Assembly: GCA_001766815.1 (NCBI GenBank)
Contig: LYOS01000001.1
Coordinates: 60,001 to 92,000 of the forward strand
Length of the DNA: 32,000 nucleotides
Direction: 5' to 3'
DNA from: Candidatus Syntropharchaeum caldarium
Lineage (GTDB): Archaea; Halobacteriota; Syntropharchaeia; Syntropharchaeales; Syntropharchaeaceae
Shown here: positions 1,528 to 22,756 of the stretch, piece by piece
Layout: every line of letters begins with the position of its first letter
Numbering within the stretch: position 1 is the stretch's first letter
Made by a program: the position numbers and the translations under genes
The notes under the pieces: generated by a model
What the model saw: only the letters and a program-made list of their open reading frames with translations
Databases searched by the model: none
Told to the model about the DNA's origin: nothing

Positions 1528-1925
1528 TTGTAGTATCCTGAAATAACTTTACACTACAACAAGATTACCACGTGAGGAAACTAACGAACAAAGATATGGC
1601 AAGAATAGTGAAACAGTGGCTTAAAGGAAAAACGATAACAAAGATAGCAGAATTCTTCCAGGTAACGATGCTACTACAGAGAACACGATTAAGGTACTCA
1701 GAGAAGGATTCACTGAATATGGCATTCCAGATGAGATACTTACCGATCACGGGACTCAGTTCGTTCCTGCAAGAGATAGGGATTCTGAAAGTCATAAATT
1801 TAAGGAGCTTGGACTGGGATGAACCAATCAATGTGTTCTTGTATAAGCTCCCTCGTCAGACGATTATGTGGTTTGGAAGGGGGTGGTGGGATGAGAAGGT
1901 GTAAATATAATTTGGGATACTACAA
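1528..1925 (+). mobile_element. Non-autonomous (MITE-like) remnant of an rve/integrase-core transposase IS element
   Basis: Perfect 11-bp terminal inverted repeats: TTGTAGTATCC (1528-1538) and GGATACTACAA (1915-1925). Flanking direct repeats: GATACCCAAAAAT (1515-1527) and GATACCCAAAATT (1927-1939). The interior translates in shifting frames to an HTH (LTNKDMARIVKQWLKGKTITKIAEFF) and an integrase-core piece (GIPDEILTDHGTQFV...HKFKELGLG). ORF 1572..1904 is a frame-mosaic, not an intact gene. Confidence 0.55.
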
Positions 1926-1940
1926 CGATACCCAAAATTC

Positions 1941-1955
1941 GAAAAGCTTTTATAT
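1941..1955 (+). promoter_or_regulatory. Candidate archaeal BRE/TATA promoter of the cohesin/dockerin operon
   Basis: GAAAAGC followed by TTTTATAT (1948-1955), about 85 nt upstream of ATG 2041. A strong GGGAGGAGG RBS lies at 2031-2039. Confidence 0.4.
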
Positions 1956-2040
1956 TTTCCCGTCCTATTAAACGTTTTGATGAATGAAAGAACGTGTAAA
2001 GTAGGGGCTGTATGGGCTGAATGCAGCGCTGGGAGGAGGC

Positions 2041-4215
2041 ATGGTAAAAAAGCGCGATAAAAGGATTGTATTGAAATTATTCGTTTTAGCTTTTTTGGTT
2101 ATGAGCGTGGTTCCGGTTTGTGGGCAAAGTTATTTTGGTCCAGCTCCAACATCTGCGCCAAGCGGCTTCACGTTCTACGCCGTTTACGATCGGTTGGTGG
2201 ACACTGACAATCACAATGTTCACATCGGCGCGGTAGCTATGAGCGGTGACGGTAACAGGCTGATCTTTGGCGGTACGGACGCCACCACCGGCGACCCCAT
2301 CCTGTACATGGTGAACGCCGACGGCACAGGCCTAACCCAACTCAATCTACCAGATCTCGGTGGACGGGGGATTGGGTGGGTGACCATTGATGAGGATGGC
2401 TCCCGGGGTTTCTTCCAGGCGGGTATTGGCGCACATAACCACCAGTTGTATAAGGTCCAAGACAGCACAGTCACCAAAATCTTTGACGTTGCTGACTACC
2501 CGGAGATCGACAGGTGCGACCACCCGCAGACCACGGCCGATGGGGAATACGTCTATTTTGTGGATACTGATGATTTATGGCGAATAAGGCACAACGGTGG
2601 TGCGCCAGAGAAGGTCATCGAGGACACAGAAGTACCCCGTGTAGACTCAAATGGAGAAAATGCCTGGAAGGTGGGAGACTTCGCCATCTCGGCTGACGCC
2701 AGCACCATCGTCTTTAGGTCTCAGGGCTTCGTGGACCCCACCAACTACTATGGCATCAGCTCCAAGGAGGAGTTGTTCGTCCTGGATGGAAGTGGCTACC
2801 GCCAACTGACCAACGATATAGGCAACGTCTACAAGACTCACATGGGCATCAGCGGGGATGGTACGACTATCGTGTTCGCCTCGGGGGGAAAATGGTATTC
2901 CATACGTTCCGACGGTAGCGCCAAAACCGTGCTGGAAACTTATGGGGCAAACTTCGGAGGGCTGGACATGACCTACGACGGCACGAAGATGTTCTATGCT
3001 GATTCTGATGCCAATGGGGGCAGGTTGACCAATACCGATGGCTCAGGGCGACTTGATGTCTTCCCTGGGTGGAATGTAGCAGCCATCACCCTTGCGGTCA
3101 CCGGAAGCGCATCCATCAGCAATGATGGGCGCCGGGTTGCTTTTGTCTTCCAGTATAGCAGCTGGCCCTTCAAGGAGGCTTTGTATGTCGGCTACCTCAA
3201 TGACACGGATGCCGTGTCCGACGCTCCCACCATCCATAACATCGCCTTCGACCCTACCTCCATGCCCAAGGATCCCAATGCCAGAATCATCCTTACCTCT
3301 CAGATCAGCGACCCGCAGGGTCTGGCAGATATTGAGCGTACCAGCACCGACGCACTCCTTGATGGCGTGCTGGAGAGCGGTAATGCGAATCTGCCTGTCT
3401 ACTTTTACTACGACGTACATGACGACGGTTCTCCGCCAGACCAGACCGCTGATGATGGCGTTTTCAGCACCGAAGGTCAGCCGGGTGGCAAAATTGATGA
3501 GTTGGATCGGATGACGGTGCGTATAGGTGCCATGGACGCCAGTAAGACAGTGGTGGTGGCTGACACTATTTTACCAATTGGTGAAATCACACCAGCTCCA
3601 ACGTCTGCACCTTCCGTTACACCACCTGAATTCTCAGGCTTAATCTTCGAATCACGCAGCAAATCGAGTGGCAGCACGGTTCAAATACCCCTCACTTTGA
3701 AAGGGGTTACGGATAAAATCGGAAACATGGACATAACCCTGAGCTATGACCCTTCTGTTCTTGAAGCAACAGAGGTTATCAAAGGGGGTTTAACAACAAC
3801 TTCTTTATTCGAGTACAATTTAATAGACTGGGGTACGATAAAGATAAGCTTAGCTGATAAAGCGGGATTTAGTGGGGATGGCTCTATTGCTTACGTGAAG
3901 TTCAACGTGATTGGATACGAGGGCTCGGTCTCTCCATTGGAAATCGTAAGCCTGTCTGCAAACAGGGCAGCAGATCTGGCAGCTATGGATATTCCCACAC
4001 AGGATGGATTGTTTACAGTATTAAGTGTTGAAGAATGCAGGGGAGATTGTAACGGAGATGGGAAGATAACTGCTGCAGATGCACTCTGCGCATTGCAGAT
4101 GGCGGTGGGTAAGCGAGCTGAAGATTTGGTTATGGATGTTAGTGAAGATGGAAAGGTTTCATCCATTGATGCAAGGAAGATACTGAGAGTTGCTGCTGGG
4201 TTGGAGATGCTGTGA
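2041..4215 (+). CDS. Secreted beta-propeller (TolB/PD40-like) protein with C-terminal cohesin + dockerin modules
   Basis: 724 aa.
- N-terminal signal/TM: LKLFVLAFLVMSVVPVCG.
- About 11 recurring xDGxxxxF/V blades (SGDGNRLIF, NADGTGLTQL, TADGEYVYF, SGDGTTIVF, SNDGRRVAF and others).
- PAPTSAPS linkers.
- Cohesin-like module at nt 3641-4025: STVQIPLTLKG..IGNMDITLSYDPSVLEA..IKISLAD..GDGSIAYVKFNVIG.
- Dockerin at nt 4041-4200 with two Ca-loop repeats: DCNGDGKITAADAL and DVSEDGKVSSIDAR. Confidence 0.85.
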   Translation: MVKKRDKRIVLKLFVLAFLVMSVVPVCGQSYFGPAPTSAPSGFTFYAVYDRLVDTDNHNVHIGAVAMSGDGNRLIFGGTDATTGDPILYMVNADGTGLTQLNLPDLGGRGIGWVTIDEDGSRGFFQAGIGAHNHQLYKVQDSTVTKIFDVADYPEIDRCDHPQTTADGEYVYFVDTDDLWRIRHNGGAPEKVIEDTEVPRVDSNGENAWKVGDFAISADASTIVFRSQGFVDPTNYYGISSKEELFVLDGSGYRQLTNDIGNVYKTHMGISGDGTTIVFASGGKWYSIRSDGSAKTVLETYGANFGGLDMTYDGTKMFYADSDANGGRLTNTDGSGRLDVFPGWNVAAITLAVTGSASISNDGRRVAFVFQYSSWPFKEALYVGYLNDTDAVSDAPTIHNIAFDPTSMPKDPNARIILTSQISDPQGLADIERTSTDALLDGVLESGNANLPVYFYYDVHDDGSPPDQTADDGVFSTEGQPGGKIDELDRMTVRIGAMDASKTVVVADTILPIGEITPAPTSAPSVTPPEFSGLIFESRSKSSGSTVQIPLTLKGVTDKIGNMDITLSYDPSVLEATEVIKGGLTTTSLFEYNLIDWGTIKISLADKAGFSGDGSIAYVKFNVIGYEGSVSPLEIVSLSANRAADLAAMDIPTQDGLFTVLSVEECRGDCNGDGKITAADALCALQMAVGKRAEDLVMDVSEDGKVSSIDARKILRVAAGLEML

Positions 4216-7200
4216 TGAACATTGTTAATTTTTTGAAAGGTAGAAGTCAAATATTTGTGTTTGGAGTTATCGTAGCCGTTTTACTGACTTCAGCAGTTGG
4301 GGTTGTGTCAGGTGGAGAATCTGGAGAATCTCAAACAACACCCACTTTTGATTGCCAAGAATACTGTAATAAAATGGTAGAAGAAAGTGGAGCGGAAACG
4401 TTGAAAATAAATGGATTACCTTGCCAGGATTGGTGTAAAAATAGAATGGATGGCTGTAAAGAGAGATTTGAAAAGGAGGGAGTTAAAGGTGCGAAGCTCG
4501 TTGGTCTAACAGACGACGCCTTTCATGAGTGTAAATGTGTAGATGAGGAAGGGAAAAGAGCATACTGTTTTTTCCCTTACGTATTTTGGAAAGAAGAGGA
4601 TTGCCCTGTATGTAGTGCGTTGGGAATAAAATTACACGATTTTATGGTGACGACGATGTATAGCAACACTGATCACTTATGTTGTGTCCATTCTGACAAG
4701 GAAGCTTATGAAAGAGGAAAATCGAGTAATTGGGTATCTGGAATTGAATACTACTTAGCAATAGATGCCACGAGTACCACTGGAGATGCTCAGAAAATAT
4801 TTAAGAAAGAGCGTGACAGCTATCTGAAAATTCCACAAGAAAGGGGTCCTGAAATACTTGAGGGTAAAGATGGGGATGGCGATAGATTTGTTTATTTTAC
4901 ACACGACGTAAACCCCACTCATAGTAAAGTAAAATATTCAACTGACTGGTCAATCCGTGGAACGATCCTCTATAAGGAAATATACGTGATCACGGTCGGT
5001 GTCAGGTATGTTAAGGATAAAAATGATGCGCAACAGAGATTCTATAAACTGGAAGAATGTGCTAAAGCAGTTATAGATGAAAAAAATAAGAAGAGAATAT
5101 TTGGAAGAGCTTTTTTGGATGATAAAACGCGCAGATATCCATATGGGGGCCTTCGCAATGCTAAAGTGGAGCTCAAACATAATGGGAATATATATAAAGA
5201 CTACACTGACGATGGTGGCTTCTTTGAGTTTGATGCAGAAGTTGAGATGGATGACCAGATTACATTAACACTTTATCTCGAAGATGAGGTCAACGGAAAG
5301 AACTACATTAAAATATTTGACAAACAAAGTACAAACCCTTCAGATCCTGTTTATATTGAGAAAACGTGTAGGATAACAGATGAAGACTTGAGGAATGGAA
5401 TCGACTTTATTTTCGATAAAAATTCCATTACTTCAGGGTATCGCTCAGGGAGCAGCAGTTCAGTACTTTCAGGATTGGTTAAAGAATATATCATTTTTGA
5501 GGACGCCGTGGCGTTTGCATTAGAAAAACTCAAAACAGACATCCACAATGTTTCAATCCACGCCAACAACCCAAACGCCAAGACAGAGTGTAAGAGCCAT
5601 TCTGAAGAAAATTCTGCCTGTTACGATCCAACTACTCGACAAATAATTTTGGGGCCAAATTATGTTAAACTCTGGCCCAATCAGGATTCGGGTTTCCTAT
5701 CTCCCTATACTGAGTTCCACGAGTTTGGACATCACATAATGTTTTGTCATAAGGAGTATCTCCGCGATATTTCCTATCAAGTAATCAATCATGGGGGGAT
5801 GATGAATCCGACTACACACGACTCGTTATGTGAAGGTGAAGCTGACTTTATGGCATTGCTAATGTATGAATACAAGTCATATATAATCTCAAGATTTGCT
5901 GAACCCAGTAGTGTAATGGGAGGCAAAAACTTTGAAGTTAATTACAAGGCGTGGCTCATGGAGGGCAATATAAACAGGGAAGACATTGCAGTAGCCTCTT
6001 TGCTATGGGATCTCTATGATGTCAAAAATCCGAAACATCCGGAGAGATTAGATGATAAGCATTTCCCCAGTCAGAACAAGGTTTATGATGAATGTAACCT
6101 TTCTCTTCAAGATATGTGGTCCATTCTCAAAAGCTCCAACTGCATTAACGTCTGGAATTTGTACATTGTGCTAACAAAGACGTATCCTGCAGATAAACAG
6201 AAAATAGATAACCTGTTCATCGCCCATGGTTTCTTCCGGGATAAAGAAAGTGGTAATGGTTCATATGATGGACCAGTAATGTACGAGAACGTAACCATGG
6301 AGGGAGAACTGGAGAGAATTTATTTCTGTGGTGAACCCTACCATGATAAAAATAACAATGGAGTTCGTGATGCCAATGAACCCTTTGTTGACCTAGGACA
6401 TGGCCATAAGTTTCCAGGCGGGCAGGTATATACTGCCAACGAGGATGTAGTCGGCACGGCGAGTAACTACCTCATGTTCGGTACACCGACTAAAGTGGGT
6501 AGACAGATTGGACCGATAGTGAAGAATTCTTATATCCTCGTAAAAAATGAGGAGACACAAGAATTCCTAGTCAAAGTTGAATTCGAACCAGAATATAGCT
6601 ATTACAACTACGAATACATGACTAGCTCTCCTGAAGGGCTGCTGTACATCTCCTTCCCGCCACCTGAATATAAGACCACAGTCACAATTACCCCAATATC
6701 CGAAAACTACGTGGCAGAAAAACCCCTTAAAATTGAATCTGAGGAATACTTTGATTTAATTTCGAAATCCACAGATGAAAACCACTTCCTTGAACATGAA
6801 TTTGACCTTCAGCCTATAAAAGAGGCATACGTCTTAGGTCTAACCTTCGAATCCCGCAGCAAATCGAGCGGAAGCACAGTTCAAATCCCGCTCACGTTGA
6901 GAGGGATTAAAGAAAAAATCGGAAACATGGATATAACCCTAAGCTATGACCCTTCAGTTTTAGATGCAAAAGAAGTCATCAAAGGAAGCTTAACAACTAA
7001 GTCTCTCTTCGATTACAATATTCTGGATGGAACGATAAAGATAAGTTTGGCTGACGAGGAGGGATTCAGTGAGGATGGCTCTATTGCCCATCTCAAGTTC
7101 AATGTGATTGGTGCTGAGGGTTCATCATCCCCCCTAACAATTGTTGCAATTGCAGCAAATAAGGCTGAAGATTACGAAACTCTGGAGGTTCCAACCAATG

Positions 7201-7406
7201 ACGGTATGTTCAAAGTAATAAGCATGGAGGAAAGTAGAGGTGACGGCGACGGTGATGGCGGGTTTACAGCGTTAGATGCGCTCTACGCACTTCAAATGGC
7301 TGTCGGAAAGATACCAGAAGACCTGGCTATGGATATGAATGGAGATGGGAGTGTAACATCGCTTGATGCCCAGAAAATTTTGAAAATCGCCGTAGGAGAA
7401 GAATAG
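4215..7406 (+). CDS. Membrane-anchored/secreted zinc metalloprotease-like protein with C-terminal cohesin + dockerin modules
   Basis: About 1063 aa.
- ATG 4215 overlaps the upstream stop (TGATG). GTG 4212 is an alternative start.
- N-terminal TM, then a 12-Cys region.
- CarboxypepD_reg-like stretch: YGGLRNAKVELKHNGNIYKDYTDDGGFFEFD.
- HEFGH zinc motif at nt 5718-5732, with a downstream EGEADF as a possible third ligand.
- Cohesin at nt 6838-7220 and dockerin at nt 7239-7397 (DGDGDGGFTALDAL, DMNGDGSVTSLDAQ). Confidence 0.85.
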   Translation: MNIVNFLKGRSQIFVFGVIVAVLLTSAVGVVSGGESGESQTTPTFDCQEYCNKMVEESGAETLKINGLPCQDWCKNRMDGCKERFEKEGVKGAKLVGLTDDAFHECKCVDEEGKRAYCFFPYVFWKEEDCPVCSALGIKLHDFMVTTMYSNTDHLCCVHSDKEAYERGKSSNWVSGIEYYLAIDATSTTGDAQKIFKKERDSYLKIPQERGPEILEGKDGDGDRFVYFTHDVNPTHSKVKYSTDWSIRGTILYKEIYVITVGVRYVKDKNDAQQRFYKLEECAKAVIDEKNKKRIFGRAFLDDKTRRYPYGGLRNAKVELKHNGNIYKDYTDDGGFFEFDAEVEMDDQITLTLYLEDEVNGKNYIKIFDKQSTNPSDPVYIEKTCRITDEDLRNGIDFIFDKNSITSGYRSGSSSSVLSGLVKEYIIFEDAVAFALEKLKTDIHNVSIHANNPNAKTECKSHSEENSACYDPTTRQIILGPNYVKLWPNQDSGFLSPYTEFHEFGHHIMFCHKEYLRDISYQVINHGGMMNPTTHDSLCEGEADFMALLMYEYKSYIISRFAEPSSVMGGKNFEVNYKAWLMEGNINREDIAVASLLWDLYDVKNPKHPERLDDKHFPSQNKVYDECNLSLQDMWSILKSSNCINVWNLYIVLTKTYPADKQKIDNLFIAHGFFRDKESGNGSYDGPVMYENVTMEGELERIYFCGEPYHDKNNNGVRDANEPFVDLGHGHKFPGGQVYTANEDVVGTASNYLMFGTPTKVGRQIGPIVKNSYILVKNEETQEFLVKVEFEPEYSYYNYEYMTSSPEGLLYISFPPPEYKTTVTITPISENYVAEKPLKIESEEYFDLISKSTDENHFLEHEFDLQPIKEAYVLGLTFESRSKSSGSTVQIPLTLRGIKEKIGNMDITLSYDPSVLDAKEVIKGSLTTKSLFDYNILDGTIKISLADEEGFSEDGSIAHLKFNVIGAEGSSSPLTIVAIAANKAEDYETLEVPTNDGMFKVISMEESRGDGDGDGGFTALDALYALQMAVGKIPEDLAMDMNGDGSVTSLDAQKILKIAVGEE

Positions 7407-7434
7407 AAAAGAAATGAAAATAGGAGGTGATAGA

Positions 7435-7986
7435 GTGAAAAAAATGTTGGTGTTGCTGGTTGGTTTGCTATGCTTGCTTTGCCTCGTATCTCTCACTTCG
7501 GCAGCGGGTTTGACTGTCAGCGTGAGTGATGAAACGGGTGCAAAAGGGGACATCGCAAAGGTGCCTATTATTCTTGAAGCCGCATCAGATGTAGGAAGTA
7601 TAGATATTGTTTTGAAGTATGATGGTCAAGTTTTGCGAGCTGTAGCTGTGGAGGCTGGTGAACTCGGTAAAAACGCGCTTATCGAAGCTAATACGGCGAG
7701 GGAAGGAGAAGTTATAATAGCGCTGGCAGATTCATCCGGAATAAATGGTGACGGCGCAGTTGCAACCATCTCCTTTGAGGTGATAGGCGATGTCGGCTCT
7801 ACGAGTCCTCTGACTCTGGAGACAGTTTCGGTAAACAACGTTGAGCTGGTTGAAGTAATCACAACCACAGAGAGCGGGACGTTTAGTGTTACTGAGGAGG
7901 GTGCACCAAAGTCCGGAGATGCGAGCACGGCGATAATGGCAATAACGGCGATAATCATCGCGTTATTCGTAATCAAGAGAAGGTAA
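7435..7986 (+). CDS. Small cohesin-domain protein with signal peptide and C-terminal TM anchor (scaffoldin/anchor-like)
   Basis: ORF 7414..7986. GGAGGTGA at 7424-7431 favours GTG 7435 (or ATG 7444) as the start. Signal peptide: LVLLVGLLCLLCLVSLTSA. Cohesin-like core: AKVPIILEAASDVGSIDIVLKYDGQVL...GDGAVATISFEVIG. The C-terminus ASTAIMAITAIIIALFVIKRR is a TM segment plus a basic tail, with no PEP or PGF motif. Confidence 0.75.
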   Translation: MKKMLVLLVGLLCLLCLVSLTSAAGLTVSVSDETGAKGDIAKVPIILEAASDVGSIDIVLKYDGQVLRAVAVEAGELGKNALIEANTAREGEVIIALADSSGINGDGAVATISFEVIGDVGSTSPLTLETVSVNNVELVEVITTTESGTFSVTEEGAPKSGDASTAIMAITAIIIALFVIKRR

Positions 7987-8005
7987 TGAGAGAGGAAGAA
8001 ATGAA

Positions 8006-8647
8006 ATGAAAAAAACAATTTTTATTTTATTTCTACTTTTTATCCTCGTAATAAGTCCAGCGAGTGCAGACCTTTTCAACGAAATGAATCAGAAGGTTCT
8101 GGTTTATAATCAGAATGTAGATAGAGTTCCAGGTGTTATAAAAAGCCTGCTCGGAAATGAGGAGATACATGGTATTATAGATTTAAACGACGGCAGTAAA
8201 TTGGAAGTAAAAGCAGTAACGAAGGAAGCAAGGGTTATCGAATTTGGGAAGGTAGGAACTGAGATAGCTCCCGGCAAAGGCGATTGCAATAAAGATGATG
8301 ATTTGACTGCTTTAGATGCATTGTGTGCTTTAAAAATGTCTGTTGGTAAAATGCAGACTCACGAGAGCATTGATGTGGATGAAGATGGCAAAGTTACCTC
8401 TTTGGATGCAAGGATAATACTTCAAGCTGTCGTTGGTTGGAGCCCCGAAGTAAATCCAACAATTGTAGTAAAAACAGATGAAGATACCATGCGTAGCATA
8501 ATGAACTCGCAAAAACCAGTTGATACATTCTTAGATGCTCTTGATAGTGGGGCTATTAAAATTGAAGCCGTTGGAGTGGTAAAAGGTATTATCCTTTCAA
8601 TAGGGAAGGTTGTGCTACAAATAGCAAGATCTCTGGGAATATTGTAA
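8006..8647 (+). CDS. Small secreted protein with an internal dockerin module
   Basis: 213 aa. Signal peptide: IFILFLLFILVISPASA. Dockerin at nt 8279-8445: DCNKDDDLTALDAL and DVDEDGKVTSLDAR. The flanking halves are homologous to the protein at 15349..15804. Confidence 0.8.
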   Translation: MKKTIFILFLLFILVISPASADLFNEMNQKVLVYNQNVDRVPGVIKSLLGNEEIHGIIDLNDGSKLEVKAVTKEARVIEFGKVGTEIAPGKGDCNKDDDLTALDALCALKMSVGKMQTHESIDVDEDGKVTSLDARIILQAVVGWSPEVNPTIVVKTDEDTMRSIMNSQKPVDTFLDALDSGAIKIEAVGVVKGIILSIGKVVLQIARSLGIL

Positions 8648-10152: not shown

Positions 10153-10242
10153 TAAAATCCTCCATGAAAAATGTGTCCTATCCCGAAATCATTTTTGCTC
10201 TACAACAACAGTGATAGATACAACCTTTACATCTACAACAAA

Positions 10243-12548
10243 GTTTCAATCCTTGTTTTCCTGGATCTTGCTCTGCAACCTCTGAAAAATTCGAGAAGGA
10301 AACGGGTTGGGTATAGTTTCAATCCTTGTTTTCCTGGATCTTGCTCTGCAACCGTACCATTCCCAGATACTACACTCACATCATCCTGTTTCAATCCTTG
10401 TTTTCCTGGATCTTGCTCTGCAACCGCTTTTGATCTGTCGGATCATATTTATATTCTATTTGTTTCAATCCTTGTTTTCCTGGATCTTGCTCTGCAACTC
10501 CTCAACCTCTTGTTTCCATTCTTCTTCGTTTTTAGTTTCAATCCTTGTTTTCCTGGATCTTGCTCTGCAACCTGCTAAAGCATTGAACAAGATCGTATAT
10601 ACTGTTAGTTTCAATCCTTGTTTTCCTGGATCTTGCTCTGCAACCTACCTTGCGGTGGCTTCTTTGGTAGCAGATAACGATAGTTTCAATCCTTGTTTTC
10701 CTGGATCTTGCTCTGCAACTTGAGGTATGCCTTACCATCGTCTGATGTTGGATCAGTTTCAATCCTTGTTTTCCTGGATCTTGCTCTGCAACCAGATGCT
10801 AATACTATTAGAGTATATTGGCAAACATGTTTCAATCCTTGTTTTCCTGGATCTTGCTCTGCAACTTATCTTGTTATAACTATATCGCCCAAAATAGGTG
10901 GTTTCAATCCTTGTTTTCCTGGATCTTGCTCTGCAACCCGTAGAATATCGACCCGCATCGTGGTATCATCGACAGTGTTTCAATCCTTGTTTTCCTGGAT
11001 CTTGCTCTGCAACTATTTTGAGCTTGCTCGTGCTGTTACGGATGATGAGTTTCAATCCTTGTTTTCCTGGATCTTGCTCTGCAACTTTCAGTCATCTAAG
11101 CCCCCGTTCATGCATTCATCGTTTCAATCCTTGTTTTCCTGGATCTTGCTCTGCAACATTCCTGATTGGCTGGGCTTACCACACCCGTGATATGATGTTT
11201 CAATCCTTGTTTTCCTGGATCTTGCTCTGCAACTTACTGTGACGTACACGAATGAATCCACGTTCATTGGTTTCAATCCTTGTTTTCCTGGATCTTGCTC
11301 TGCAACATGGCTGCAATCGAGAGGGAGTTCTTTCCTAACACATAGTTTCAATCCTTGTTTTCCTGGATCTTGCTCTGCAACCAACATATTCCTCCCACCT
11401 GAGTATATTAACGATCTGTTTCAATCCTTGTTTTCCTGGATCTTGCTCTGCAACTAAAAGATGTAAAACCAGAAGAATCTGCAATAATAGGTTTCAATCC
11501 TTGTTTTCCTGGATCTTGCTCTGCAACCCGATGAGGAGGGCAGGAGTCGAACCTGCCGTGCTGGTTTCAATCCTTGTTTTCCTGGATCTTGCTCTGCAAC
11601 CTCCAGCATTCCGTATCACAATCTCATCGAGTTCCAGTTTCAATCCTTGTTTTCCTGGATCTTGCTCTGCAACCATCCTTCTCCTTTGCGAAGTGAGGAT
11701 TTATGCTTCGTTTCAATCCTTGTTTTCCTGGATCTTGCTCTGCAACCATTGAAGAGCATTATGGAATCTTGAAAGAGAGGTGATGTTTCAATCCTTGTTT
11801 TCCTGGATCTTGCTCTGCAACTTGTTCTTATGTAGTATATGGGTAGGTATCATATAGTTTCAATCCTTGTTTTCCTGGATCTTGCTCTGCAACTCTATCC
11901 TTATCAATATAATCTGGATGTATCCCGGAGTTTCAATCCTTGTTTTCCTGGATCTTGCTCTGCAACCTTCCATTCACCCCCTTTTTTGTGACGAAACTAA
12001 TAGTTTCAATCCTTGTTTTCCTGGATCTTGCTCTGCAACAAGTTACCTCATCACCTTTCACAATGATCCCTTTAGGTTTCAATCCTTGTTTTCCTGGATC
12101 TTGCTCTGCAACTTTATTACAGTAATAACAAGTTTTTATTTTTCGATGTTTCAATCCTTGTTTTCCTGGATCTTGCTCTGCAACCTGTGGTGGACTAAGG
12201 ACGATATGACGGATATTATGTTTCAATCCTTGTTTTCCTGGATCTTGCTCTGCAACACGAGTATATACAACAAATAGTTAGTTTACTATCATCGTTTCAA
12301 TCCTTGTTTTCCTGGATCTTGCTCTGCAACTATCAATTGCAGGCAAGATTGGGGGTTCTATTGGTGGGTTTCAATCCTTGTTTTCCTGGATCTTGCTCTG
12401 CAACCCCACATTTGCATAGCCTGGGTCAATGCCTAATATGGTTTCAATCCTTGTTTTCCTGGATCTTGCTCTGCAACTTATAATCATTCTCAGACATAGA
12501 TTAAGAGATCTGTTTCAATCCTTGTTTTCCTGGATCTTGCTCTGCAAC
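10243..12548 (-). CRISPR. CRISPR array, 32 repeats / 31 spacers, no cas genes in the window
   Basis: 32 identical 37-nt repeats, GTTTCAATCCTTGTTTTCCTGGATCTTGCTCTGCAAC on the + strand. The first is at 10243-10279 and the last at 12512-12548. The 31 spacers are unique and 34-39 nt long. The reverse complement GTTGCAGAGCAAGATCCAGGAAAACAAGGATTGAAAC ends in ATTGAAAC, the Cas6-generated 8-nt handle of type I/III repeats. It closely resembles the Methanosarcina mazei repeat as I remember it, so crRNA is read from the minus strand. Confidence 0.97.
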
Positions 12549-13630: not shown

Positions 13631-15148
13631 ATGAAGTGGTGGGAATGGGGATTAACTGTTGTTACTGGCGGTGCCTATGCAGCTGGAAAGGCACTTTACA
13701 ACGGATACAAGAAGGTAACAGGAATCGCCGATGATGTGGAGAATGCTACTGAACAGATAGGACTCACGATCGCGAAGATCGGAGATACTGTTGTAACCCT
13801 GGGGGATGGTCTTGATTCTTTAATAGAGGAGATAGAGGATCTGCTGGTGATCGAGAGGCTGACTGCCAGGGATGAGTCTGATCTGTGGGATGAGGAGAAA
13901 GAGCGTTTGAACGATTTAATTGAAGAAAGAAAATCACTGAAAAGTGAGATTGCGAAACTTAGAGAAGAGATAAAGACCGAAACAGGCGTTAATATACCAG
14001 ATTTTTATGGCGCCCCACTCCACAGGTGGATAATCGAGAATGTCGTAACAGGCCCGATGTCATGGATCTTTGGCGGATCAAATACGATATGGAGGGATCT
14101 TGGTGAATCTGGTAGAGATAAAGCCTTTAAAATCCTTGGTATAAACTCAAGTCTGATAAAGATCGATAAAGAGATTCATGAGATTCTATATAACGAACCC
14201 GGCGTTTTACCGACGACAATTTATAACGTAAAAGAGGTAATCGAGCGATTCAATACGATAGAACAGCCAAAGATCGAGGATATACTGGATTCGGTCGACG
14301 ACAATCTGGTAGAATCCCAGGAAATCCTGGAACAGATAAAGAAGCTCTTTGTCACGAAAAAACTTGTTCCCATCGATATCGCTACCCTGCCAGAGCTGGA
14401 AGTGGAAAGACTGCGGATGCTTGAAGGTGAATACAAACTTCTCGAATCTGCGATGAAGAAGGATCTGGAAGTAGCAAAACAATTCATGGATCTGAAATTA
14501 GAGACTCAACCTGCCACTCTTAACCTTCCAGTTGCTAAATCAATGCCTGCAGGCGAGATGAAACCGATGGATGCCGATCTTTCATCGGGTATGAGAAAGA
14601 ACTTTAATGTTTCAATGGTGAAAGATCCAGGCATATTAAAACGCGATATCCTGGATGATGCAGGTCCAAAGATCTTTAAGGCATCGAGGCAGCCTGATAG
14701 CGTGAAGATGGCAACTGGCCTGATAAACAGTATAAACAGTAAATACCATGCATACAACAGCGGTTATTCCATTCAAAAAGCAATTATAACGAAGAATGAA
14801 CGAGATATCGCCAAAATAAAGCTCAAGATCGATAAAATTAAGTATAAAGTGGTGGAGGAGCCCGGTGTAATACCAAAGACACTCGCCAATTTTGAAGATA
14901 TACTGAAACGATTTAACACTGAAGAGCAGCCAAGAATCGAGGCTATACTGGATTCTGTCAATGATAACCTGAGAGAATCCAGAGATCTGATAAATAAGGC
15001 AAATACCACCTTTGAAAAAGTATCGGATTTCGCCGGTAATCACAATCTACTGGTAAAGATGGCTCTTGGCGTTGTGGGTGGTGCAGTGGTACTGACGTTG
15101 ATACTGATACCAATAGCCCTGATCAGACTGATAATCTTCGGATTTTAG
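13631..15148 (+). CDS. Tail-anchored coiled-coil protein with an internal duplication (function unknown)
   Basis: 505 aa, with an AAGGTGG RBS. It has a hydrophobic N-terminus, long Glu/Lys/Leu heptad-like stretches and a C-terminal TM (LLVKMALGVVGGAVVLTLILIPIALIRLIIFGF). The repeat EPGVLPTTIYNVKEVIERFNTIEQPKIEDILDSVDDNLVESQ recurs as EPGVIPKTLANFEDILKRFNTEEQPRIEAILDSVNDNLRESR. Confidence 0.7.
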   Translation: MKWWEWGLTVVTGGAYAAGKALYNGYKKVTGIADDVENATEQIGLTIAKIGDTVVTLGDGLDSLIEEIEDLLVIERLTARDESDLWDEEKERLNDLIEERKSLKSEIAKLREEIKTETGVNIPDFYGAPLHRWIIENVVTGPMSWIFGGSNTIWRDLGESGRDKAFKILGINSSLIKIDKEIHEILYNEPGVLPTTIYNVKEVIERFNTIEQPKIEDILDSVDDNLVESQEILEQIKKLFVTKKLVPIDIATLPELEVERLRMLEGEYKLLESAMKKDLEVAKQFMDLKLETQPATLNLPVAKSMPAGEMKPMDADLSSGMRKNFNVSMVKDPGILKRDILDDAGPKIFKASRQPDSVKMATGLINSINSKYHAYNSGYSIQKAIITKNERDIAKIKLKIDKIKYKVVEEPGVIPKTLANFEDILKRFNTEEQPRIEAILDSVNDNLRESRDLINKANTTFEKVSDFAGNHNLLVKMALGVVGGAVVLTLILIPIALIRLIIFGF

Positions 15149-15348
15149 TGAAAAACCTGTGCCTTTGGGAAGGTTTTTGGATAATCCAATTCCAAAAGTT
15201 CGATCAACCTTCATACTCTGTTATCAGATCAACCATAAACATCAACCGCAGCTCAGCATACATATCTACTATCTCGATATCATCTACTTCCATAATCAAC
15301 CCTTTTTGGTGGACAAGAAGTTTATATGATGAAGGCGATAATTATCAT

Positions 15349-15804
15349 ATGCAGAAATCGCGTATGAGGGTGATAACTGCACTGGCATGTCTTATAACAC
15401 TCCTTGCCATGCCATGTGCATCAGCATCTGAAGACTTATTTGGGGATATGTCTTCGGCAATGGATGGATATAATGAGCAAATAGACAAGTTACCATCTTT
15501 TCTGAAGCATATAGGTGATGAGCGGATCAACTGTGAGATTCAGCTTGAGGGTGGCGGATCGATGACTGTCGGCGTGATAATTGATAATTTACAGATAGAC
15601 CTCCAGAAAGGAGCGCTTGATCATCCATCGGTGACCGTACAGGTTGATGAGCAGACGGTACGAGAAATAATCAATTCAGGATCGCCGCTTACAACAATTG
15701 CAGCCGCACTTGAGGATGGTCGTATAACGTACAGGGTACATGGTCGATGGTGGAAAAAATTCAAATACAGTATACTTGAGCGGCTTTTGATCGAGCGTTA
15801 CTGA
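15349..15804 (+). CDS. Small secreted protein, dockerin-less paralog of 8006..8647 (SCP2-like by impression)
   Basis: ATG 15349 gives the signal peptide MQKSRMRVITALACLITLLAMPCASA. The GTG 15148 extension in the ORF track is low-complexity and overlaps the upstream stop. It aligns with 8006..8647 on both sides of that protein's dockerin. Confidence 0.65.
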   Translation: MQKSRMRVITALACLITLLAMPCASASEDLFGDMSSAMDGYNEQIDKLPSFLKHIGDERINCEIQLEGGGSMTVGVIIDNLQIDLQKGALDHPSVTVQVDEQTVREIINSGSPLTTIAAALEDGRITYRVHGRWWKKFKYSILERLLIERY

Positions 15805-16686: not shown

Positions 16687-16781
16687 GGTTCATTATTTGT
16701 GTTCACCTGTATTTATAGCTGGTAGTGGAAATTCGCAATCTATTTATATCATACACAAAGAAGATTTATGAGGTATGGAGC

Positions 16782-17786
16782 GTGAATCATAGTATTATCG
16801 TACTCGGGTTTCTTATAATTCTGGCTTTATGTGTGGGTAGTGCGGGTGCGACTGAGATATGGGTGACTGATGATTATTTGACAATTCAAGCAGCGGTGAA
16901 TAGCGCTTCAGCGTATGATACGATCATCGTGAGGGATGGGACGTATTATGAGAATGTGGATGTGAACGTCGATCATTTAACGATCAGATCTGAGAATGGG
17001 TCTGGTTCAACAACGGTTGTGGGAAGTATGCCGGCTCTATCTGCGGTATCTACGGCAGACTCAAATGGTTATGGCTTTAATGGCTTTAGTGATCATGTCT
17101 TTGATATAACCGCAGATTATGTGAATATCAGCGGGTTTACGGTGACAGGGGCGACATCGGGCACATGGACATCCGGGATTCGAGTTTATGGTGCTGATTC
17201 TTGCACGATATCTGAAAACAACGTAAATGGCAATAGGCACGGAATACGTCTTTCAGGTTCGAGCAATCGGAACATTATCAGAGATAACACGGTAAGTTCA
17301 AACGAGAAGTATGGTGTTTACCTAACCTCCGACTCAACTGATGAGAACGAGATCATCCAGAACACGCTGGCTTCAAATGAAGCGGGGGTTTATATCAATA
17401 ATGCAGATTCCAACAATATCTCCTGCAACTATATCTTCAACAACAACTATGGCATCTATCTCAAAGCTGGATCGACAGATAACACGATCAAACACAACAA
17501 CATCATTGCAAACGGTAAGCTACAAGATGATGGTAGTTACCATTGGCAGCTTTATAACAACCAGAAGAAGGATGTCAGTGCAACCAATAACTGGTGGGGC
17601 ACGACCGATAACAACGAGATCGATGCAGGCATCTATGATGACGAAGAAGGAAAAGGTAAGGTAACATATCTCCCGAAGCTTGAGATACCTTCCACGTGTG
17701 CCGTCACTGAACCCCTCACGCTTGTGATGGTCACGCTGGGTATTCTTGGTGTGATCGGGGCCGTTTACAGGAAGAGGGAACAGTGA
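16782..17786 (+). CDS. Secreted right-handed beta-helix (NosD/PbH1-repeat) protein with a PEP-CTERM-like tail
   Basis: ORF 16725..17786. GTG 16782 gives the signal peptide (M)NHSIIVLGFLIILALCVGSAGA. PbH1-type repeats: NNVNGNRHGIRLSGSSNRNIIRDNTVSSNEKYGVYL...NNNYGIYL. The C-terminus is VTEPLTLVMVTLGILGVIGAVYRKREQ. Confidence 0.75.
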   Translation: MNHSIIVLGFLIILALCVGSAGATEIWVTDDYLTIQAAVNSASAYDTIIVRDGTYYENVDVNVDHLTIRSENGSGSTTVVGSMPALSAVSTADSNGYGFNGFSDHVFDITADYVNISGFTVTGATSGTWTSGIRVYGADSCTISENNVNGNRHGIRLSGSSNRNIIRDNTVSSNEKYGVYLTSDSTDENEIIQNTLASNEAGVYINNADSNNISCNYIFNNNYGIYLKAGSTDNTIKHNNIIANGKLQDDGSYHWQLYNNQKKDVSATNNWWGTTDNNEIDAGIYDDEEGKGKVTYLPKLEIPSTCAVTEPLTLVMVTLGILGVIGAVYRKREQ

Positions 17787-19763: not shown

Positions 19764-19817
19764 TTAAACAATTGAGGGTGATGACAAAATGACATCTGTG
19801 CTTGCATAATCACAAGA

Positions 19818-19825
19818 TTTATATA
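19818..19825 (+). promoter_or_regulatory. Candidate TATA box for the PEP-CTERM/exosortase operon
   Basis: TTTATATA lies about 52 nt upstream of GTG 19877. It falls inside the over-extended ORF-track start at 19802. Confidence 0.4.
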
Positions 19826-19876
19826 GGGGTAATTAGAGAAATAATTAAATACTTAGAGGTAAGTAGGCGATATGGT

Positions 19877-20572
19877 GTGAAGATGATTATTAGGATGGTA
19901 CTGGTTGGAGTGCTTCTGATGATGGTGGTTACACCCGTAGTTGTGGGAGTTACTTCTACCGATACAGTGAACAAAGTAAAACCTGGTAATCACCAGCCAT
20001 ATATAATCCTGCTTATGAAACAGGGCGGTGGAGATTTCATTCGGCTTCTACCAGACAAATCATACACCGTTGTGCCTGATGTCCCACTCAGGTTCAAAGC
20101 AATATACGTGTGGAAGGTTGGCTTGCTCGATAACGAAAAGAGGCAGACCGTTTTAACAGAAGGCGAAGAGAAGGCAGTAATAAAAGCGATACAGAAGGGG
20201 ATAGAATCAAAGGATCAGATGTTAGGCTCATCTGTGTTCCCCAAGAGATGGAAAGTGAATATCACCGAGAATGATGGCACGGAAGTGGAATTAGGCTCTG
20301 GTTATGGCTGGGAACTGAAATGGAACCTTGTTGAAGTAAATGGCAATTTGTATCTGGTAGCCTGGACACCCCCAGGTGTGGTAGACTTGTATACTCCCTC
20401 ACAGGATAAGTCGCCATTTGATGTGGCTGCGATCTGGAATAAATGGTGTTGGGGATCATCAATTCTTACAATAGAAGGTATAGTTGTCGTACCAGAACCC
20501 ACCACTCTCGCTCTGACAGCCCTTGGCATGCTGGGCGTTCTTGGATTTGTCAGAAGGAGAAGGGAGGCGTAA
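19877..20572 (+). CDS. PEP-CTERM sorting-domain protein 1
   Basis: The start is placed by alignment of RBS + start with the paralog: AGTAGGCGATATGGTGTGAAGATG versus AGGAGGCGATATTGTATGAAGATG. Signal peptide: KMIIRMVLVGVLLMMVVTPVVVG. C-terminus: VPEPTTLALTALGMLGVLGFVRRRREA. Confidence 0.8.
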   Translation: MKMIIRMVLVGVLLMMVVTPVVVGVTSTDTVNKVKPGNHQPYIILLMKQGGGDFIRLLPDKSYTVVPDVPLRFKAIYVWKVGLLDNEKRQTVLTEGEEKAVIKAIQKGIESKDQMLGSSVFPKRWKVNITENDGTEVELGSGYGWELKWNLVEVNGNLYLVAWTPPGVVDLYTPSQDKSPFDVAAIWNKWCWGSSILTIEGIVVVPEPTTLALTALGMLGVLGFVRRRREA

Positions 20573-20639: not shown

Positions 20640-21107
20640 ATGAAGATGATTAGAATGGCACTGGTTGGAGTGCTTCTGATGATGCTGGTTATGCCGGCGG
20701 TGGCAACGGATATAACCATTTATATGGATATAGGAAATGGCTGGGAGGTTGCAGAGAACAGTCACCAATATCAAGTTGATGCAAACACAGAATGCCGGTT
20801 CAAGGCAAACTATTCCGGTTGGGGTAGTGGTACTATGTATGTGTTTAATGTGACAAATAGTAGCGCATGGATAGGTGGGGAAAGTGGTACCAGTAGCACT
20901 GACACATGGGAGACTGGAGTTGTAACTTATACAATCTCGCTTGATGAGACGGTCTTTGTGGAGGCAGCAGCGGCTAATTTTGCGAAAAAAAAGATTAGCG
21001 TTACCGCAAGTACAGTTACGGGCGTCCCAGAACCCACCACCCTCGCTCTGACAGCCCTTGGCATGCTGGGCGTTCTTGGATTTGTCAGAAGGAGAAGAGA
21101 GGAGTAG
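20640..21107 (+). CDS. PEP-CTERM sorting-domain protein 2
   Basis: Signal peptide: MKMIRMALVGVLLMMLVMPAVA. C-terminus: VPEPTTLALTALGMLGVLGFVRRRREE. Confidence 0.85.
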   Translation: MKMIRMALVGVLLMMLVMPAVATDITIYMDIGNGWEVAENSHQYQVDANTECRFKANYSGWGSGTMYVFNVTNSSAWIGGESGTSSTDTWETGVVTYTISLDETVFVEAAAANFAKKKISVTASTVTGVPEPTTLALTALGMLGVLGFVRRRREE

Positions 21108-21131: not shown

Positions 21132-21962
21132 ATGGACATACAAAAGAGTGACAATAAAATATGGCCTCTGGGGCTTATAATCTCCACGGTGGTGTTATAC
21201 TTTGGCTCATTCAAATGGCTCCTCACATCATGGCTCACCCTTGATGCTTACAGTCATGGATTTCTGATCCCGATCATATCCTTCTTTCTTATCTGGCAGA
21301 AGCGAGATATTTTATCTGGAGCTGATGATCAGAAAAGCCCGATGCTATTTATCCTTGGCCTTATAATCTACGTTGTGGGACAGTTTACGGGTGCGATCTT
21401 TCTCACCACCGTATCAATGATACCTTTTCTTCTCGGTCTCGTTCTCCTGTTTAAAGGTGCTCAGCAAATGCGTGTGCTTATATTTCCAGTCTGTTTTTTG
21501 ATATTTGCGATCCCCTTGCCAGACCTTGATGGGATAATGCTCACCCTCCAGGGTATATCAACCGTGCTTGCAACAGGCATCTCTCACCTTCTTGGGGTTG
21601 AATCAAGCCATGACGGCTGCCAGATCTTGATGAACGGGGCAATATTTGAGGTTGCACCTGCATGCAGCGGCTTTAATTCGATCGTATCACTCTTTACTGT
21701 GGTCACCCTCCTGGCATATCTCATCCCTGATCCACTCACAGATAAGGTTATTTTGTTAATAGCAACCCTTCCTCTTGCAATATTCACCAACGGATTGAGG
21801 ATTGCGATAACACTTCTTGTAGCGTCAAACTTCGGGGTTGAAGCAGGGATGAGATACTTCCATGACTGGGGTGGCATAACATTCTTTGTGATCGCACTTG
21901 TATCGATATTCATACTCCTGGAGGTGTTGAGATGGATAAGAAAGATCAGTACAAAGCCGTAG
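21132..21962 (+). CDS. Exosortase (bacterial-type exosortase/archaeosortase superfamily transpeptidase)
   Basis: 276 aa and polytopic. N-terminal exosortase signature: DAYSHGFLIPIISFFLIWQKR. Candidate catalytic Cys in VAPACSGFNS, Arg in TNGLRIAI, His in YFHDWGG. Confidence 0.8.
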   Translation: MDIQKSDNKIWPLGLIISTVVLYFGSFKWLLTSWLTLDAYSHGFLIPIISFFLIWQKRDILSGADDQKSPMLFILGLIIYVVGQFTGAIFLTTVSMIPFLLGLVLLFKGAQQMRVLIFPVCFLIFAIPLPDLDGIMLTLQGISTVLATGISHLLGVESSHDGCQILMNGAIFEVAPACSGFNSIVSLFTVVTLLAYLIPDPLTDKVILLIATLPLAIFTNGLRIAITLLVASNFGVEAGMRYFHDWGGITFFVIALVSIFILLEVLRWIRKISTKP

Positions 21963-22756
21963 CCACTGCACTGTTTTTGGTTATGATTATAACGATTCTC
22001 CTATCTCCACCAGAGGTCTTACTCCAGCGTGGGGTGATGGTTGATACCACGCCCACCTATACATCGGCTGAGAAATCATGGGTTAAGACACAGATGGAAC
22101 TTGGGAATAATGAGGCGATCGAGTCGCTGCCGATGAATATAAATGAGTGGAAGGGTTACAGGATCGATATCAAGGAGAGCGTGATCGAAGCACTCAAACC
22201 CGATATGATCATGGAGCGTGCATATTATGGAGCAGATAATCCAACCCCGGTATGGCTTCTCATCATACGGGCTGAGAACACCTCTGCGTTTCATGATCCA
22301 AAGGTCTGCTATCGAGGGGCTGGCTGGAGTGTTGTCAACGAGACGCAGATCGCAATTAGGCTGAATGGATCAAGATGGATTGCTGATGCATCTACCACCC
22401 GGAGCAGCGATGCTGAAATTGTGGTGAACAAGCTTTTACTTGAGAAGGAGGGCAGGTACAGGCTTATCATGTACTTCTACCTCAAGGAACTTATATTTGC
22501 AAGCTCACCCGGGAAGATCACGATCGTGAGAGCCGAGACAACGGTTGAGGATCTCGATGATGCCAGCAGGCAGCTTGAGAACTTCTTCAGTGAGATACTT
22601 CCATATCTGTTCATACCAGTTTCAGGCGGAGGAGATGTGGTGGCAGTGCTGCTATATCGAAATTATGGCGTAATCGGTGCTTTAATGATGTCATTATTGC
22701 TTCTCTTCCCACTTGTTTATCTCATCAGGCTGGTTATGCAAAGCAGAATTCGATAG
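21932..22756 (+). CDS. Exosortase-associated EpsI-family protein
   Basis: It overlaps the exosortase gene by 31 nt and has an N-terminal TM. EpsI-type string: LPMNINEWKGYRIDI...LKPDMIMERAYY...VWLLIIRAENTSAFHDPKVCYRGAGWSV. It also has an extra C-terminal TM. Confidence 0.7.
   Translation: MDKKDQYKAVATALFLVMIITILLSPPEVLLQRGVMVDTTPTYTSAEKSWVKTQMELGNNEAIESLPMNINEWKGYRIDIKESVIEALKPDMIMERAYYGADNPTPVWLLIIRAENTSAFHDPKVCYRGAGWSVVNETQIAIRLNGSRWIADASTTRSSDAEIVVNKLLLEKEGRYRLIMYFYLKELIFASSPGKITIVRAETTVEDLDDASRQLENFFSEILPYLFIPVSGGGDVVAVLLYRNYGVIGALMMSLLLLFPLVYLIRLVMQSRIR

Follow-up and report, generated by a model that had tools for sequence, protein, structure and literature searches.

Do cohesins and dockerins encoded side by side in an archaeal gene cluster build a defined assembly on the cell surface, and is such an assembly peculiar to the organism that carries it? 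This question is raised by a 32,000-nucleotide stretch of the genome of the butane-oxidising archaeon Candidatus Syntrophoarchaeum caldarius (contig LYOS01000001.1, positions 60,001 to 92,000; hereafter the window), in which four co-directional open reading frames (ORFs) of the + strand, here called g1 to g4, occupy positions 2041-8647. The original prediction regarded them as an operon of cellulosome style with balanced modules and a closed set of partners. To read the cluster as cellulosome-like is reasonable in broad terms, and our analysis gives this reading a more precise form: the cluster is probably the S. caldarius version of a conserved archaeal cohesin-dockerin surface assembly cluster, with ORF2375-ORF2376 of Archaeoglobus fulgidus as prototype and with one extra cargo gene.

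Cohesin and dockerin modules of the cluster

The domain order of the four products was derived from the ORFs, from Pfam and from local hidden Markov models (HMMs). The g1 product (2041..4215, + strand; 724 aa) comprises a putative signal peptide, a PD40-type region likely to be a propeller, a domain of ~130 aa, a class-A cohesin, a linker of ~6 residues and a dockerin. The g2 product (4215..7406, + strand; 1063 aa from ATG 4215 or 1064 aa from GTG 4212) begins with a hydrophobic leader, followed by a Cys-rich N-domain, a CarboxypepD_reg-like beta-sandwich, an HExxH domain, a beta-rich C-domain, a class-A cohesin and a dockerin. The small g3 protein (7435..7986, + strand; 183 aa from GTG 7435 or 190 aa from ATG 7414) consists of a putative signal peptide, a class-B cohesin (nt 7507-7890) and a predicted C-terminal transmembrane helix followed by KRR (nt 7921-7986). 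Finally, g4 (8006..8647, + strand; 213 aa), which is 100% identical to SCAL_000064, has a putative signal peptide, an SCP2-like N-half (nt 8069-8260), an inserted dockerin (nt 8276-8437) and an SCP2-like C-half (nt 8453-8644).

Profile searches back both kinds of module. The curated Pfam cut-offs are 24.1 bits for Cohesin (PF00963), 22.9 bits for Dockerin_1 (PF00404) and 20.9 bits for PD40. PF00963 matched the cohesins of g1 (3637..4020, + strand, aa 533-660; 57.1 bits, 3e-15), g2 (6837..7217, + strand, aa 876-1002; 62.2 bits, 7.9e-17; also found by the local HMM) and g3 (50.7 bits, 2.8e-13), all over the cut-off. PF00404 matched the dockerins of g1 (4039..4200, + strand, aa 667-720; 29.3 bits) and g4 (28.8 bits) over the cut-off and that of g2 (7236..7397, + strand, aa 1009-1062) marginally under it, at 21.5 bits; the local HMM detected the g2 dockerin at 1e-32. 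Two calcium loops (D-x-[ND]-x-D-G/D ... D at position 12) are intact in each of the three dockerins, as DCNGDGKITAAD and DVSEDGKVSSID in g1 and as DGDGDGGFTALD and DMNGDGSVTSLD in g2, and the loop positions are near-invariant across the g4 family. The g2 dockerin is 64% identical to that of g1, and the three are pairwise 52-64% identical.

A six-frame scan of the window with HMMs derived from these modules returned three cohesins, three dockerins and no more of either, so that the predicted count of 3:3 stands. As a special property of this locus the balance does not stand, since the counts in relatives are 2:2, 3:3 and 4:4, and 3:2 in Methanoperedens. It results from the way the proteins are built, with a cohesin and a dockerin in every cargo protein and one module of either kind in the base pair.

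The top match in the Protein Data Bank (PDB) was the same for the cohesins of g1 (3.7e-17), g2 (3.9e-16) and g3, namely the Archaeoglobus cohesin structure 2xdh. Because 2xdh matches the cohesin of the A. neptunius cargo-type protein with an E-value of 2.9e-46, its long internal insertion included, it can be regarded as the Archaeoglobus orthologue of the class-A cohesin.

Conservation of a three-gene core and binding in Archaeoglobus

Seventy-one members of the g4 family were found in a collection of 5.8 billion proteins. Nearly all of them are exactly 213 aa long and 54-72% identical, and they occur in Methanolobus, Methanococcoides, Methanoperedens and other Methanosarcinales, cultured strains included, with distant members in Archaeoglobus (E 3e-13 between g4 and the homologue P0071). 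In every locus examined, the g4-type gene lies directly after the gene of a small cohesin protein, which itself follows at least one cohesin+dockerin protein. The core is composed of a variable protein ending in a cohesin and a dockerin, a cohesin protein of ~175-190 aa and then an SCP2-dockerin protein of ~200-216 aa. Conservation in relatives, a check proposed with the original prediction, was found for this three-gene core, which is syntenic in Archaeoglobus, Methanococcoides, Methanolobus, Methanoperedens and uncultured relatives. At the same cluster position, g3 is 61% identical to its Methanolobus counterpart and 39% identical over the full length (E 4e-27) to that of A. neptunius, and the cohesin-dockerin cassette of g1 is 37% identical (E 1e-30) to the PD40/Tricorn_N-cohesin-dockerin protein of the latter species. 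The C-terminal hydrophobic tail of the small cohesin protein was read directly in the Methanolobus locus L001 and in the A. neptunius alignment only.

Around this core, each locus carries one to three cargo genes. The cargo has a LamG domain in Methanolobus (L001), where a further Cys-rich cargo gene lies downstream, and in Methanococcoides methylutens (L004), and it is of the PD40/Tricorn_N kind in A. neptunius (L007). One cargo gene is accompanied by two anchored cohesins in Methanoperedens (L005/L006), three cargo genes are present in an uncultured relative (L008), and Methanolobus sp. WCC4 has two separate systems in one genome (L011 and L012). Judged by this gene content, g2 is an added cargo gene that lies outside the conserved three-gene core.

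Binding between modules of this kind has been measured in A. fulgidus. According to the passage on this pair in PMC9705933, which cites Haimovitz 2008 and Voronov-Goldman 2011, binding between the ORF2375 dockerin (aa 432-506) and the ORF2376 cohesin (aa 29-162) is tight and highly specific; the pair has since found use in E. coli surface display (PMC9705933) and in designer cellulosomes that are thermostable (PMC6394049). The order of the genes is the same as in the window, a cohesin+dockerin cargo protein and then a small cohesin protein (an order seen in A. neptunius), the cargo of the Archaeoglobus cluster, like g1, is probably a PD40-type propeller, and all three window cohesins have their best PDB match in 2xdh. 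The two clusters also differ: a second cargo gene with a zincin-like passenger, g2, is present only in the window, the window class-A cohesins are without the insertion of ~27-30 residues of the Archaeoglobus cohesin, the dockerin of the third gene lies inside the SCP2-like domain in the window and ahead of it in Archaeoglobus, and sequence identities are only 27-43%. Cohesin- and dockerin-like sequences in A. fulgidus were reportedly described by Bayer in 1999. The cluster is an orthologue of this system, known since that year and with measured binding in Archaeoglobus.

Could the modules rather belong to an open network, pairing mainly with others in the genome or on a syntrophic bacterial partner and serving cell-cell adhesion in consortia? 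Genomes of anaerobic methanotrophic archaea (ANME) hold tens to more than 100 cohesin and dockerin domains, for which such roles have been proposed (PMC5244752, PMC9012536). The varying number of cargo genes among relatives, the two systems of one Methanolobus genome and the lectin-like LamG and AbfB cargo of relatives are also consistent with such a network, and a closed set of partners, as originally supposed, is not shown in view of that cargo number and those two systems. Against the network, the strict adjacency of the genes over ~7 independent loci suggests co-encoded partners. Moreover, a restriction of the cluster to ANME or syntrophic archaea does not hold, as it is also present in cultured, free-living methylotrophic methanogens. 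Because the three-gene core occurs in axenic, non-syntrophic methanogens and in Archaeoglobus, its function cannot be specific to consortia. Taken together, an open network seems to us a possible but doubtful explanation.

Two classes of cohesin and exchange of cargo

The cohesins of g1 and g2 are 73% identical, while g1 and g3 share only 36% identity in this module. The same division runs through the relatives. Within Methanosarcinales, Syntrophoarchaeum and Methanoperedens, the cohesins of cargo proteins (class A) are 67-84% identical and those of anchored proteins (class B) 55-87%, against 25-40% between the classes; the class-A cohesin of Methanoperedens is an outlier, with 34-38% identity to the others of its class. 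Archaeoglobus cohesins each side with their own class, A or B. Judging from these identities, the two classes are older than the genera and form separate orthologous groups, and this separation argues for distinct roles. A similar but less sharp division is seen between the cargo dockerins and those of the SCP2 proteins.

Close relatives (P0001-P0003; L013, L014; L008 at 1805-7393) have a near-identical g1 dockerin and g2 leader and differ in their passengers. P0001 has a differing N-terminus, P0002 the same Cys-rich N-domain with another middle part, and P0003 keeps the g2-type leader, with cohesin and dockerin absent. The g1 version of L014 (contig of ERZ27227314, 3257 bp) bears an extra domain ahead of the cohesin, and a conserved ORF of 56 aa lies 5' of one cargo gene both in L008 and in L013 (contig of ERZ650341, 3199 bp). 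Because differing passengers are joined to a near-constant dockerin and leader, passenger domains appear to be exchanged on short evolutionary time scales, and the pattern suggests cassette-like recombination of surface-protein genes.

Two further loci carry parts of the cluster. On the Methanophagales/ANME-1 contig QENH01000201 (L002, 10046-10729), downstream of a LamG-containing protein of 1139 aa, a single frame encodes a partial class-A and then a class-B cohesin; neither a dockerin nor an SCP2-dockerin gene was detected nearby, and the frame may have arisen by fusion, by rearrangement or by decay of a cluster copy. On the bacterial, high-GC (guanine plus cytosine) contig JAQTVL010000014 of a Phycisphaerae metagenome-assembled genome (L003, 1708-4571), a cohesin+dockerin protein of 575 aa is followed by a protein of 332 aa in which a predicted signal peptide and a class-B-like cohesin come first, then a proline-rich linker, and last a transmembrane helix whose cytoplasmic tail is rich in Cys; no SCP2-dockerin gene is present on this contig. 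Unless the contig is mis-binned, this arrangement indicates that the dyad of cargo and anchored cohesin is not confined to archaea.

A predicted SCP2-like fold with an inserted dockerin in g4

In the original prediction g4 was a small dockerin-only protein acting as a cap. This view has to be given up, as g4 has an SCP2-like fold in its structural model and is the best-conserved protein of the cluster. The AlphaFold2 (AF2) model reached a predicted local distance difference test score (pLDDT) of 86.4. About 35 of its top 43 Foldseek matches were SCP2 domains, from archaea, bacteria, insects, yeast and human, with E-values of 3e-3 to 0.5, probabilities mostly above 0.9 and target-normalised template modelling (TM) scores mostly of 0.43-0.58, in alignments that span the inserted dockerin. 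The insert itself was superposed on the solved dockerins 6kgf_D, 2vn6_B, 6kge_B and 6kgc_B with TM scores of 0.70-0.77 and a root-mean-square deviation of ~2 A. The Pfam SCP2 profile matched neither the whole protein nor either flank, even at E<=10. Since single E-values are weak, support for SCP2 comes from the agreement among the matches; for this reason, and because of the missing Pfam match, g4 was assigned to the SCP2 fold and not to the family.

The predicted fold outside the dockerin matches SCP2 domains such as AF1534 (3bn8), UbiJ (6h6p) and human SCP2. In contrast to these, g4 lacks a Pfam SCP2 match, is predicted to be exported and not cytoplasmic, and carries its dockerin between strands 3 and 4. 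According to the model, g4 is an SCP2-like fold with a dockerin inserted in a loop, and its SCP2-like module probably binds a lipid or another hydrophobic ligand. The hydrophobic C-terminus of g4 was also considered as a second membrane anchor and rejected, as it forms the last helix of the SCP2 fold in the model.

In the Archaeoglobus homologues of g4, the dockerin is N-terminal to an uninterrupted copy of the domain. The window itself contains a dockerin-less paralogue at 15352-15804 (ORF 15148-15804), composed of a predicted signal peptide and an SCP2-like domain, to which the two g4 flanks align at 33% and 39% identity. Its existence indicates that the domain can stand alone and that the dockerin of g4 is an insertion. 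The paralogue is encoded directly after a coiled-coil protein of 505 aa with a C-terminal hydrophobic segment (13631-15148).

Passenger domains of g1 and g2

The predicted combination of propeller, cohesin and dockerin in g1 stands for the last two modules, while the propeller is likely, from its motifs and a marginal PD40 match. Seven motifs of the form SxDGxxxxF (more fully hydrophobic-S-x-D-G-x-x-hydrophobic-hydrophobic-F) start at aa 67, 116, 164, 216, 270, 310 and 359, within a region at 2173..3195 (+ strand, ~aa 45-385). They span aa 67-368 with a spacing of 40-54 residues and read MSGDGNRLIF, IDEDGSRGFF, TTADGEYVYF, ISADASTIVF, ISGDGTTIVF, MTYDGTKMFY and ISNDGRRVAF. PD40 scored 16.4 bits on the whole protein and 21.1 bits on the N-terminal part alone (cut-off 20.9). 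Weak matches to the LRP6 propeller and to Dpp5 were also obtained, and the A. neptunius protein at the cluster position of g1 gave weak PD40 and Tricorn_N matches. Because of the seven motifs, the PD40 score at the cut-off and this Archaeoglobus counterpart, g1 likely carries a seven-bladed PD40-type propeller.

The passenger of g2 belongs to a larger family. Its zincin-like core (5436..6521, + strand, ~aa 409-770) contains HEFGH at aa 503-507 (nt 5718-5732) and E541 (nt 5832-5834). It is preceded by the Cys-rich N-domain, with 13 cysteines within the first 320 residues, and by the CarboxypepD_reg-like sandwich, which was deduced from relatives. An exhaustive HMMER search yielded at least 490 relatives of the core at E<=1e-3, 234 of them at E<=1e-10 (representatives of 50% clustering), where a word-index homology search with the passenger had returned 3 matches only. 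HExxH is shared by all 141 aligned members and the downstream Glu by 145 of 145; invariant or near-invariant residues are H503, E504, H507, N526, H527, G529, N532, D537, S538 and E541, giving the motif HExxH, 18 residues, NHxGxxNxxTxDSxxEGFAxF. The HExxH domain family (window 5079-6821, g2 aa 290-870; P0075-P0246) occurs in archaea and bacteria, with Altiarchaeota, Actinomycetota and Methanophagaceae among the source names. The domain usually follows a CarboxypepD_reg-like domain, and some members have EF-hand or dockerin-like segments.

The motif reads as a zincin signature with the Glu on the following helix, as in gluzincins. Like gluzincin metallopeptidases (for example M1, with its NEGFA motif), g2 has an invariant HExxH and a downstream Glu, here 34 residues past the second His, in an EGFAxF-like motif and on the next long helix. 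In the AF2 model of the core (pLDDT 71.9), beta-strands are followed by two long helices that bear HExxH and the Glu, with E541 in the predicted helix 128-151. Unlike in gluzincins, no profile, sequence or fold match links g2 to curated peptidase families, and the third zinc ligand could be the invariant H527, part of an NH pair 19-20 residues past HExxH, in place of the Glu. The core was covered by no model of Pfam or NCBIfam, even when five sub-regions of g2 and g4 were scanned with Pfam at E<=10, and Pfam detected in ten family members only CarboxypepD_reg and EF-hand, outside the catalytic-like core. The family profile gave only chance matches among PDB sequences, and Foldseek with the core model returned nothing significant, the best zincin being LTA4 hydrolase (4gaa_B; E 0.77, probability 0.41). 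The assignment of g2 to a peptidase fold was abandoned for want of a significant Foldseek match, and the motif evidence was kept. Of the predicted metalloprotease-like protein with cohesin and dockerin, the HEFGH motif and both modules were found again and a match to a peptidase family or fold was not; since profiles, PDB sequences and folds all fail to match, "metalloprotease-like" is a statement at the level of the motif.

These passengers raise the possibility that the cluster encodes an extracellular protein-degrading complex, whose main purpose would be the harvest of peptides by a propeller of TolB, tricorn or DPP type (g1) placed together on the membrane with the zincin-like g2. We regard this as unlikely. 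The invariance of HExxH and of the downstream Glu among 490 representatives, the predicted topology of g2 with its beta-strands and two motif-bearing helices, and the weak Tricorn_N and PD40 matches of the Archaeoglobus cargo are in its favour. However, neither fold nor profile links g2 to known peptidase families, g2 is missing from most related clusters, where lectin-like cargo is found, and PD40 propellers are commonly non-catalytic binding domains.

Predicted export and anchoring, and gene layout

A hydrophobic, signal-like segment is present at the N-terminus of each of g1, g2, g3 and g4. The C-terminus of g3 is a hydrophobic stretch, AIMAITAIIIALFVI, followed by KRR, and together with the PF00963 match this bears out the proposal of a cohesin-only protein with a C-terminal transmembrane anchor. 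An exosortase signal at this C-terminus was considered and set aside, because g3 and its orthologues are without the PEP motif of the window's true PEP-CTERM proteins.

The compact arrangement described in the original prediction, with a 1-nt overlap and gaps of about 20-30 nt, was found as such. The g1/g2 junction is TGATG, an overlap of 1 nt with the g2 start ATG 4215 or of 4 nt with GTG 4212. For g3, GTG 7435 is the likeliest start: a GGAGG Shine-Dalgarno core in TAGGAGGTGATAGAGTG lies 7 nt before it, and the g3 product was called at 183 aa in an independent S. caldarius assembly (L010). With this start, the g2/g3 and g3/g4 gaps are 28 and 19 nt. Directly 5' of the g1 ATG lies GGGAGGAGGC. 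A candidate archaeal promoter, read by eye, may be present at 1940..1955 (+ strand), where a sequence like the TFB recognition element (BRE), CGAAAAGC, precedes a TATA-like TTTTATAT ~86 nt 5' of the g1 ATG. A scan for sigma-70 promoters and terminators, which uses bacterial models not applicable to archaea, did no better than on shuffled sequence.

Other features of the window

A CRISPR-like array (10242-12548) starts 1.6 kb downstream of g4, with ~31 copies of the 37-nt repeat GTTTCAATCCTTGTTTTCCTGGATCTTGCTCTGCAAC at a period of ~73 nt; it yields many spurious repeat-derived ORFs, and no cas genes were recognised among the ORFs of the window. Further downstream, a bacterial-type, XrtA-like exosortase (21132-21962; EpsH family, 158 bits, cut-off 105.55) has an EpsI-like protein (21932-22756) after it and two small PEP-CTERM proteins (19802-20572 and 20640-21107; TIGR02595 over the cut-off) before it. 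By its gene content, this set represents a second, independent surface-anchoring system near the cohesin-dockerin cluster. A NosD-like parallel beta-helix protein (16725-17786) has a similar hydrophobic-plus-basic tail.

Upstream of the cluster, a radical SAM enzyme of the AmmeMemoRadiSam system is encoded on the - strand (40-1080; TIGR04337, 360.7 bits against a cut-off of 220), and a NAD-kinase-like gene lies at 29629-30735. In the Methanoperedens locus, Radical_SAM and NAD-kinase-like genes directly follow the cluster; their recurrence may be coincidental.

Discussion

The assembly that we favour would be organised as follows. All four proteins would be exported via their N-terminal signal sequences, and g3 would be held in the membrane by its C-terminal helix with the class-B cohesin on the outer face. 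The C-terminal dockerins of g1 and g2 would bind this cohesin in a calcium-dependent manner, by analogy with what has been shown for the A. fulgidus modules. Once docked, g1 and g2 would keep their class-A cohesin free for a further dockerin, from cargo or from g4, so that short chains or a small membrane network would form and not a large scaffoldin-based particle. The SCP2-like module of g4, whose fold the model supports, would be brought into the complex by the inserted dockerin. In such an arrangement g3, g4 and one cohesin-dockerin cargo protein would be the constant part, and the cargo passengers would be exchangeable. The proposed role of the membrane-anchored cohesin as a base thus retains a binding precedent in the orthologous A. 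fulgidus genes, while that of g4 as a bare dockerin cap is lost.

Several points weigh against this assembly. At only 52-64% identity the three dockerins need not share a partner, and in the cargo proteins only ~6 residues link the cohesin to the dockerin. Further S. caldarius cohesins or dockerins, encoded elsewhere in the genome, may compete for the modules of the cluster. Signal peptides and membrane topology are deduced from hydropathy, and the co-transcription of g1-g4 from their spacing. What pairs with what, in which order base, chain and cap would come together, and any activity in catalysis or lipid binding are, finally, inferences on our part.

The cassette could also serve self-association, cohesin and dockerin binding within a chain or head to tail to give g1/g2 homo-oligomers or sheets with no ordered docking on g3. 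The two modules do stand side by side in every cargo protein of every locus, joined by a short conserved linker (V-I/L-S-x-E-E-x-x-G-D), and in an abstract of 2011 Voronov-Goldman reportedly described both A. fulgidus cohesins as binding the sole dockerin then recognised, and the crystallised cohesin as reversibly dimeric or tetrameric. We nevertheless hold this to be quite improbable, as the ~6-residue linker is probably too short for fold-back onto the protein's own cohesin, the very long retention of a distinct anchored class-B cohesin implies a partner, and a cargo dockerin binds the cohesin of a separate small protein in the passage on the A. fulgidus pair (PMC9705933).

The preferred assembly, with cargo docked on an anchored cohesin, can be compared with two better-known groups of cohesin-dockerin systems. 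Bacterial cellulosomes of the Clostridium/Acetivibrio thermocellum type use the same two module families, have calcium-loop dockerins and plug dockerin-tagged proteins into cell-attached cohesins; they also include "adaptor" proteins bearing a cohesin and a dockerin, like the cargo of the window. They are attached by SLH (surface-layer homology) domains or by sortase, whereas the window cluster would use a C-terminal transmembrane helix. No multi-cohesin scaffoldin was found in the window, with at most one cohesin per protein according to Pfam and the six-frame HMM scan. Pfam and NCBIfam searches of g1-g4 detected no glycoside hydrolase or carbohydrate-binding module (CBM) family, so that carbohydrate-active enzymes are indeed missing, as had been proposed.

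The second group, the expansions of ANME genomes (Timmers 2017, PMC5244752; Chadwick 2022, PMC9012536), is found in related Halobacteriota and likewise concerns non-cellulolytic surface proteins with variable partner domains. These genome reviews report many cohesin/dockerin domains and call for binding experiments (PMC5244752, PMC9012536). There the genes are many and scattered, and their products include substrate-binding proteins tagged with a dockerin as well as scaffoldin-like proteins with as many as five cohesins (PMC9012536), whereas the window has a compact cluster with single modules per protein and a core common to ordinary methanogens.

The literature search, which mostly left out subscription journals, retrieved no description of the three-gene core and none linking SCP2 with dockerins in archaea. 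Useful new elements are the conserved core of three genes, which cultured methanogens also have, the SCP2-like third protein, the two long-separated cohesin classes, the fast exchange of cargo and the uncurated HExxH family.

A different weighting of the parts can be proposed tentatively, although we would not expect it to hold: the heart of the system may be the anchored class-B cohesin with the exported SCP2-like dockerin protein, and the cargo proteins may be rapidly exchangeable adaptors. The reason is that g3 and g4 are adjacent from Archaeoglobi to Methanosarcinales and that g4 is nearly always 213 aa long in Methanosarcinales-type lineages. If true, the pair would represent an ancient archaeal device that holds a lipid- or hydrophobic-binding module at the outer membrane face, with isoprenoid lipids, quinones or methanophenazine as possible ligands, and the cargo would couple this module to binding or enzymatic domains.

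Archaea that oxidise methane or alkanes are very rich in cohesin-dockerin genes, and the compact cluster described here is not peculiar to those organisms. It offers several leads: a small defined set of partners, two cohesin classes that, having been kept apart for so long, are expected to differ in specificity, a conserved SCP2-like dockerin protein for which the searchable literature gave no description, and an HExxH family of at least 490 representatives without a curated model. None of them overturns current understanding. The cluster is an old three-gene unit, shared with Archaeoglobus, in which binding was measured, and with cultured Methanococcoides and Methanolobus, in strains of which proteomics is feasible and genetics possibly so.

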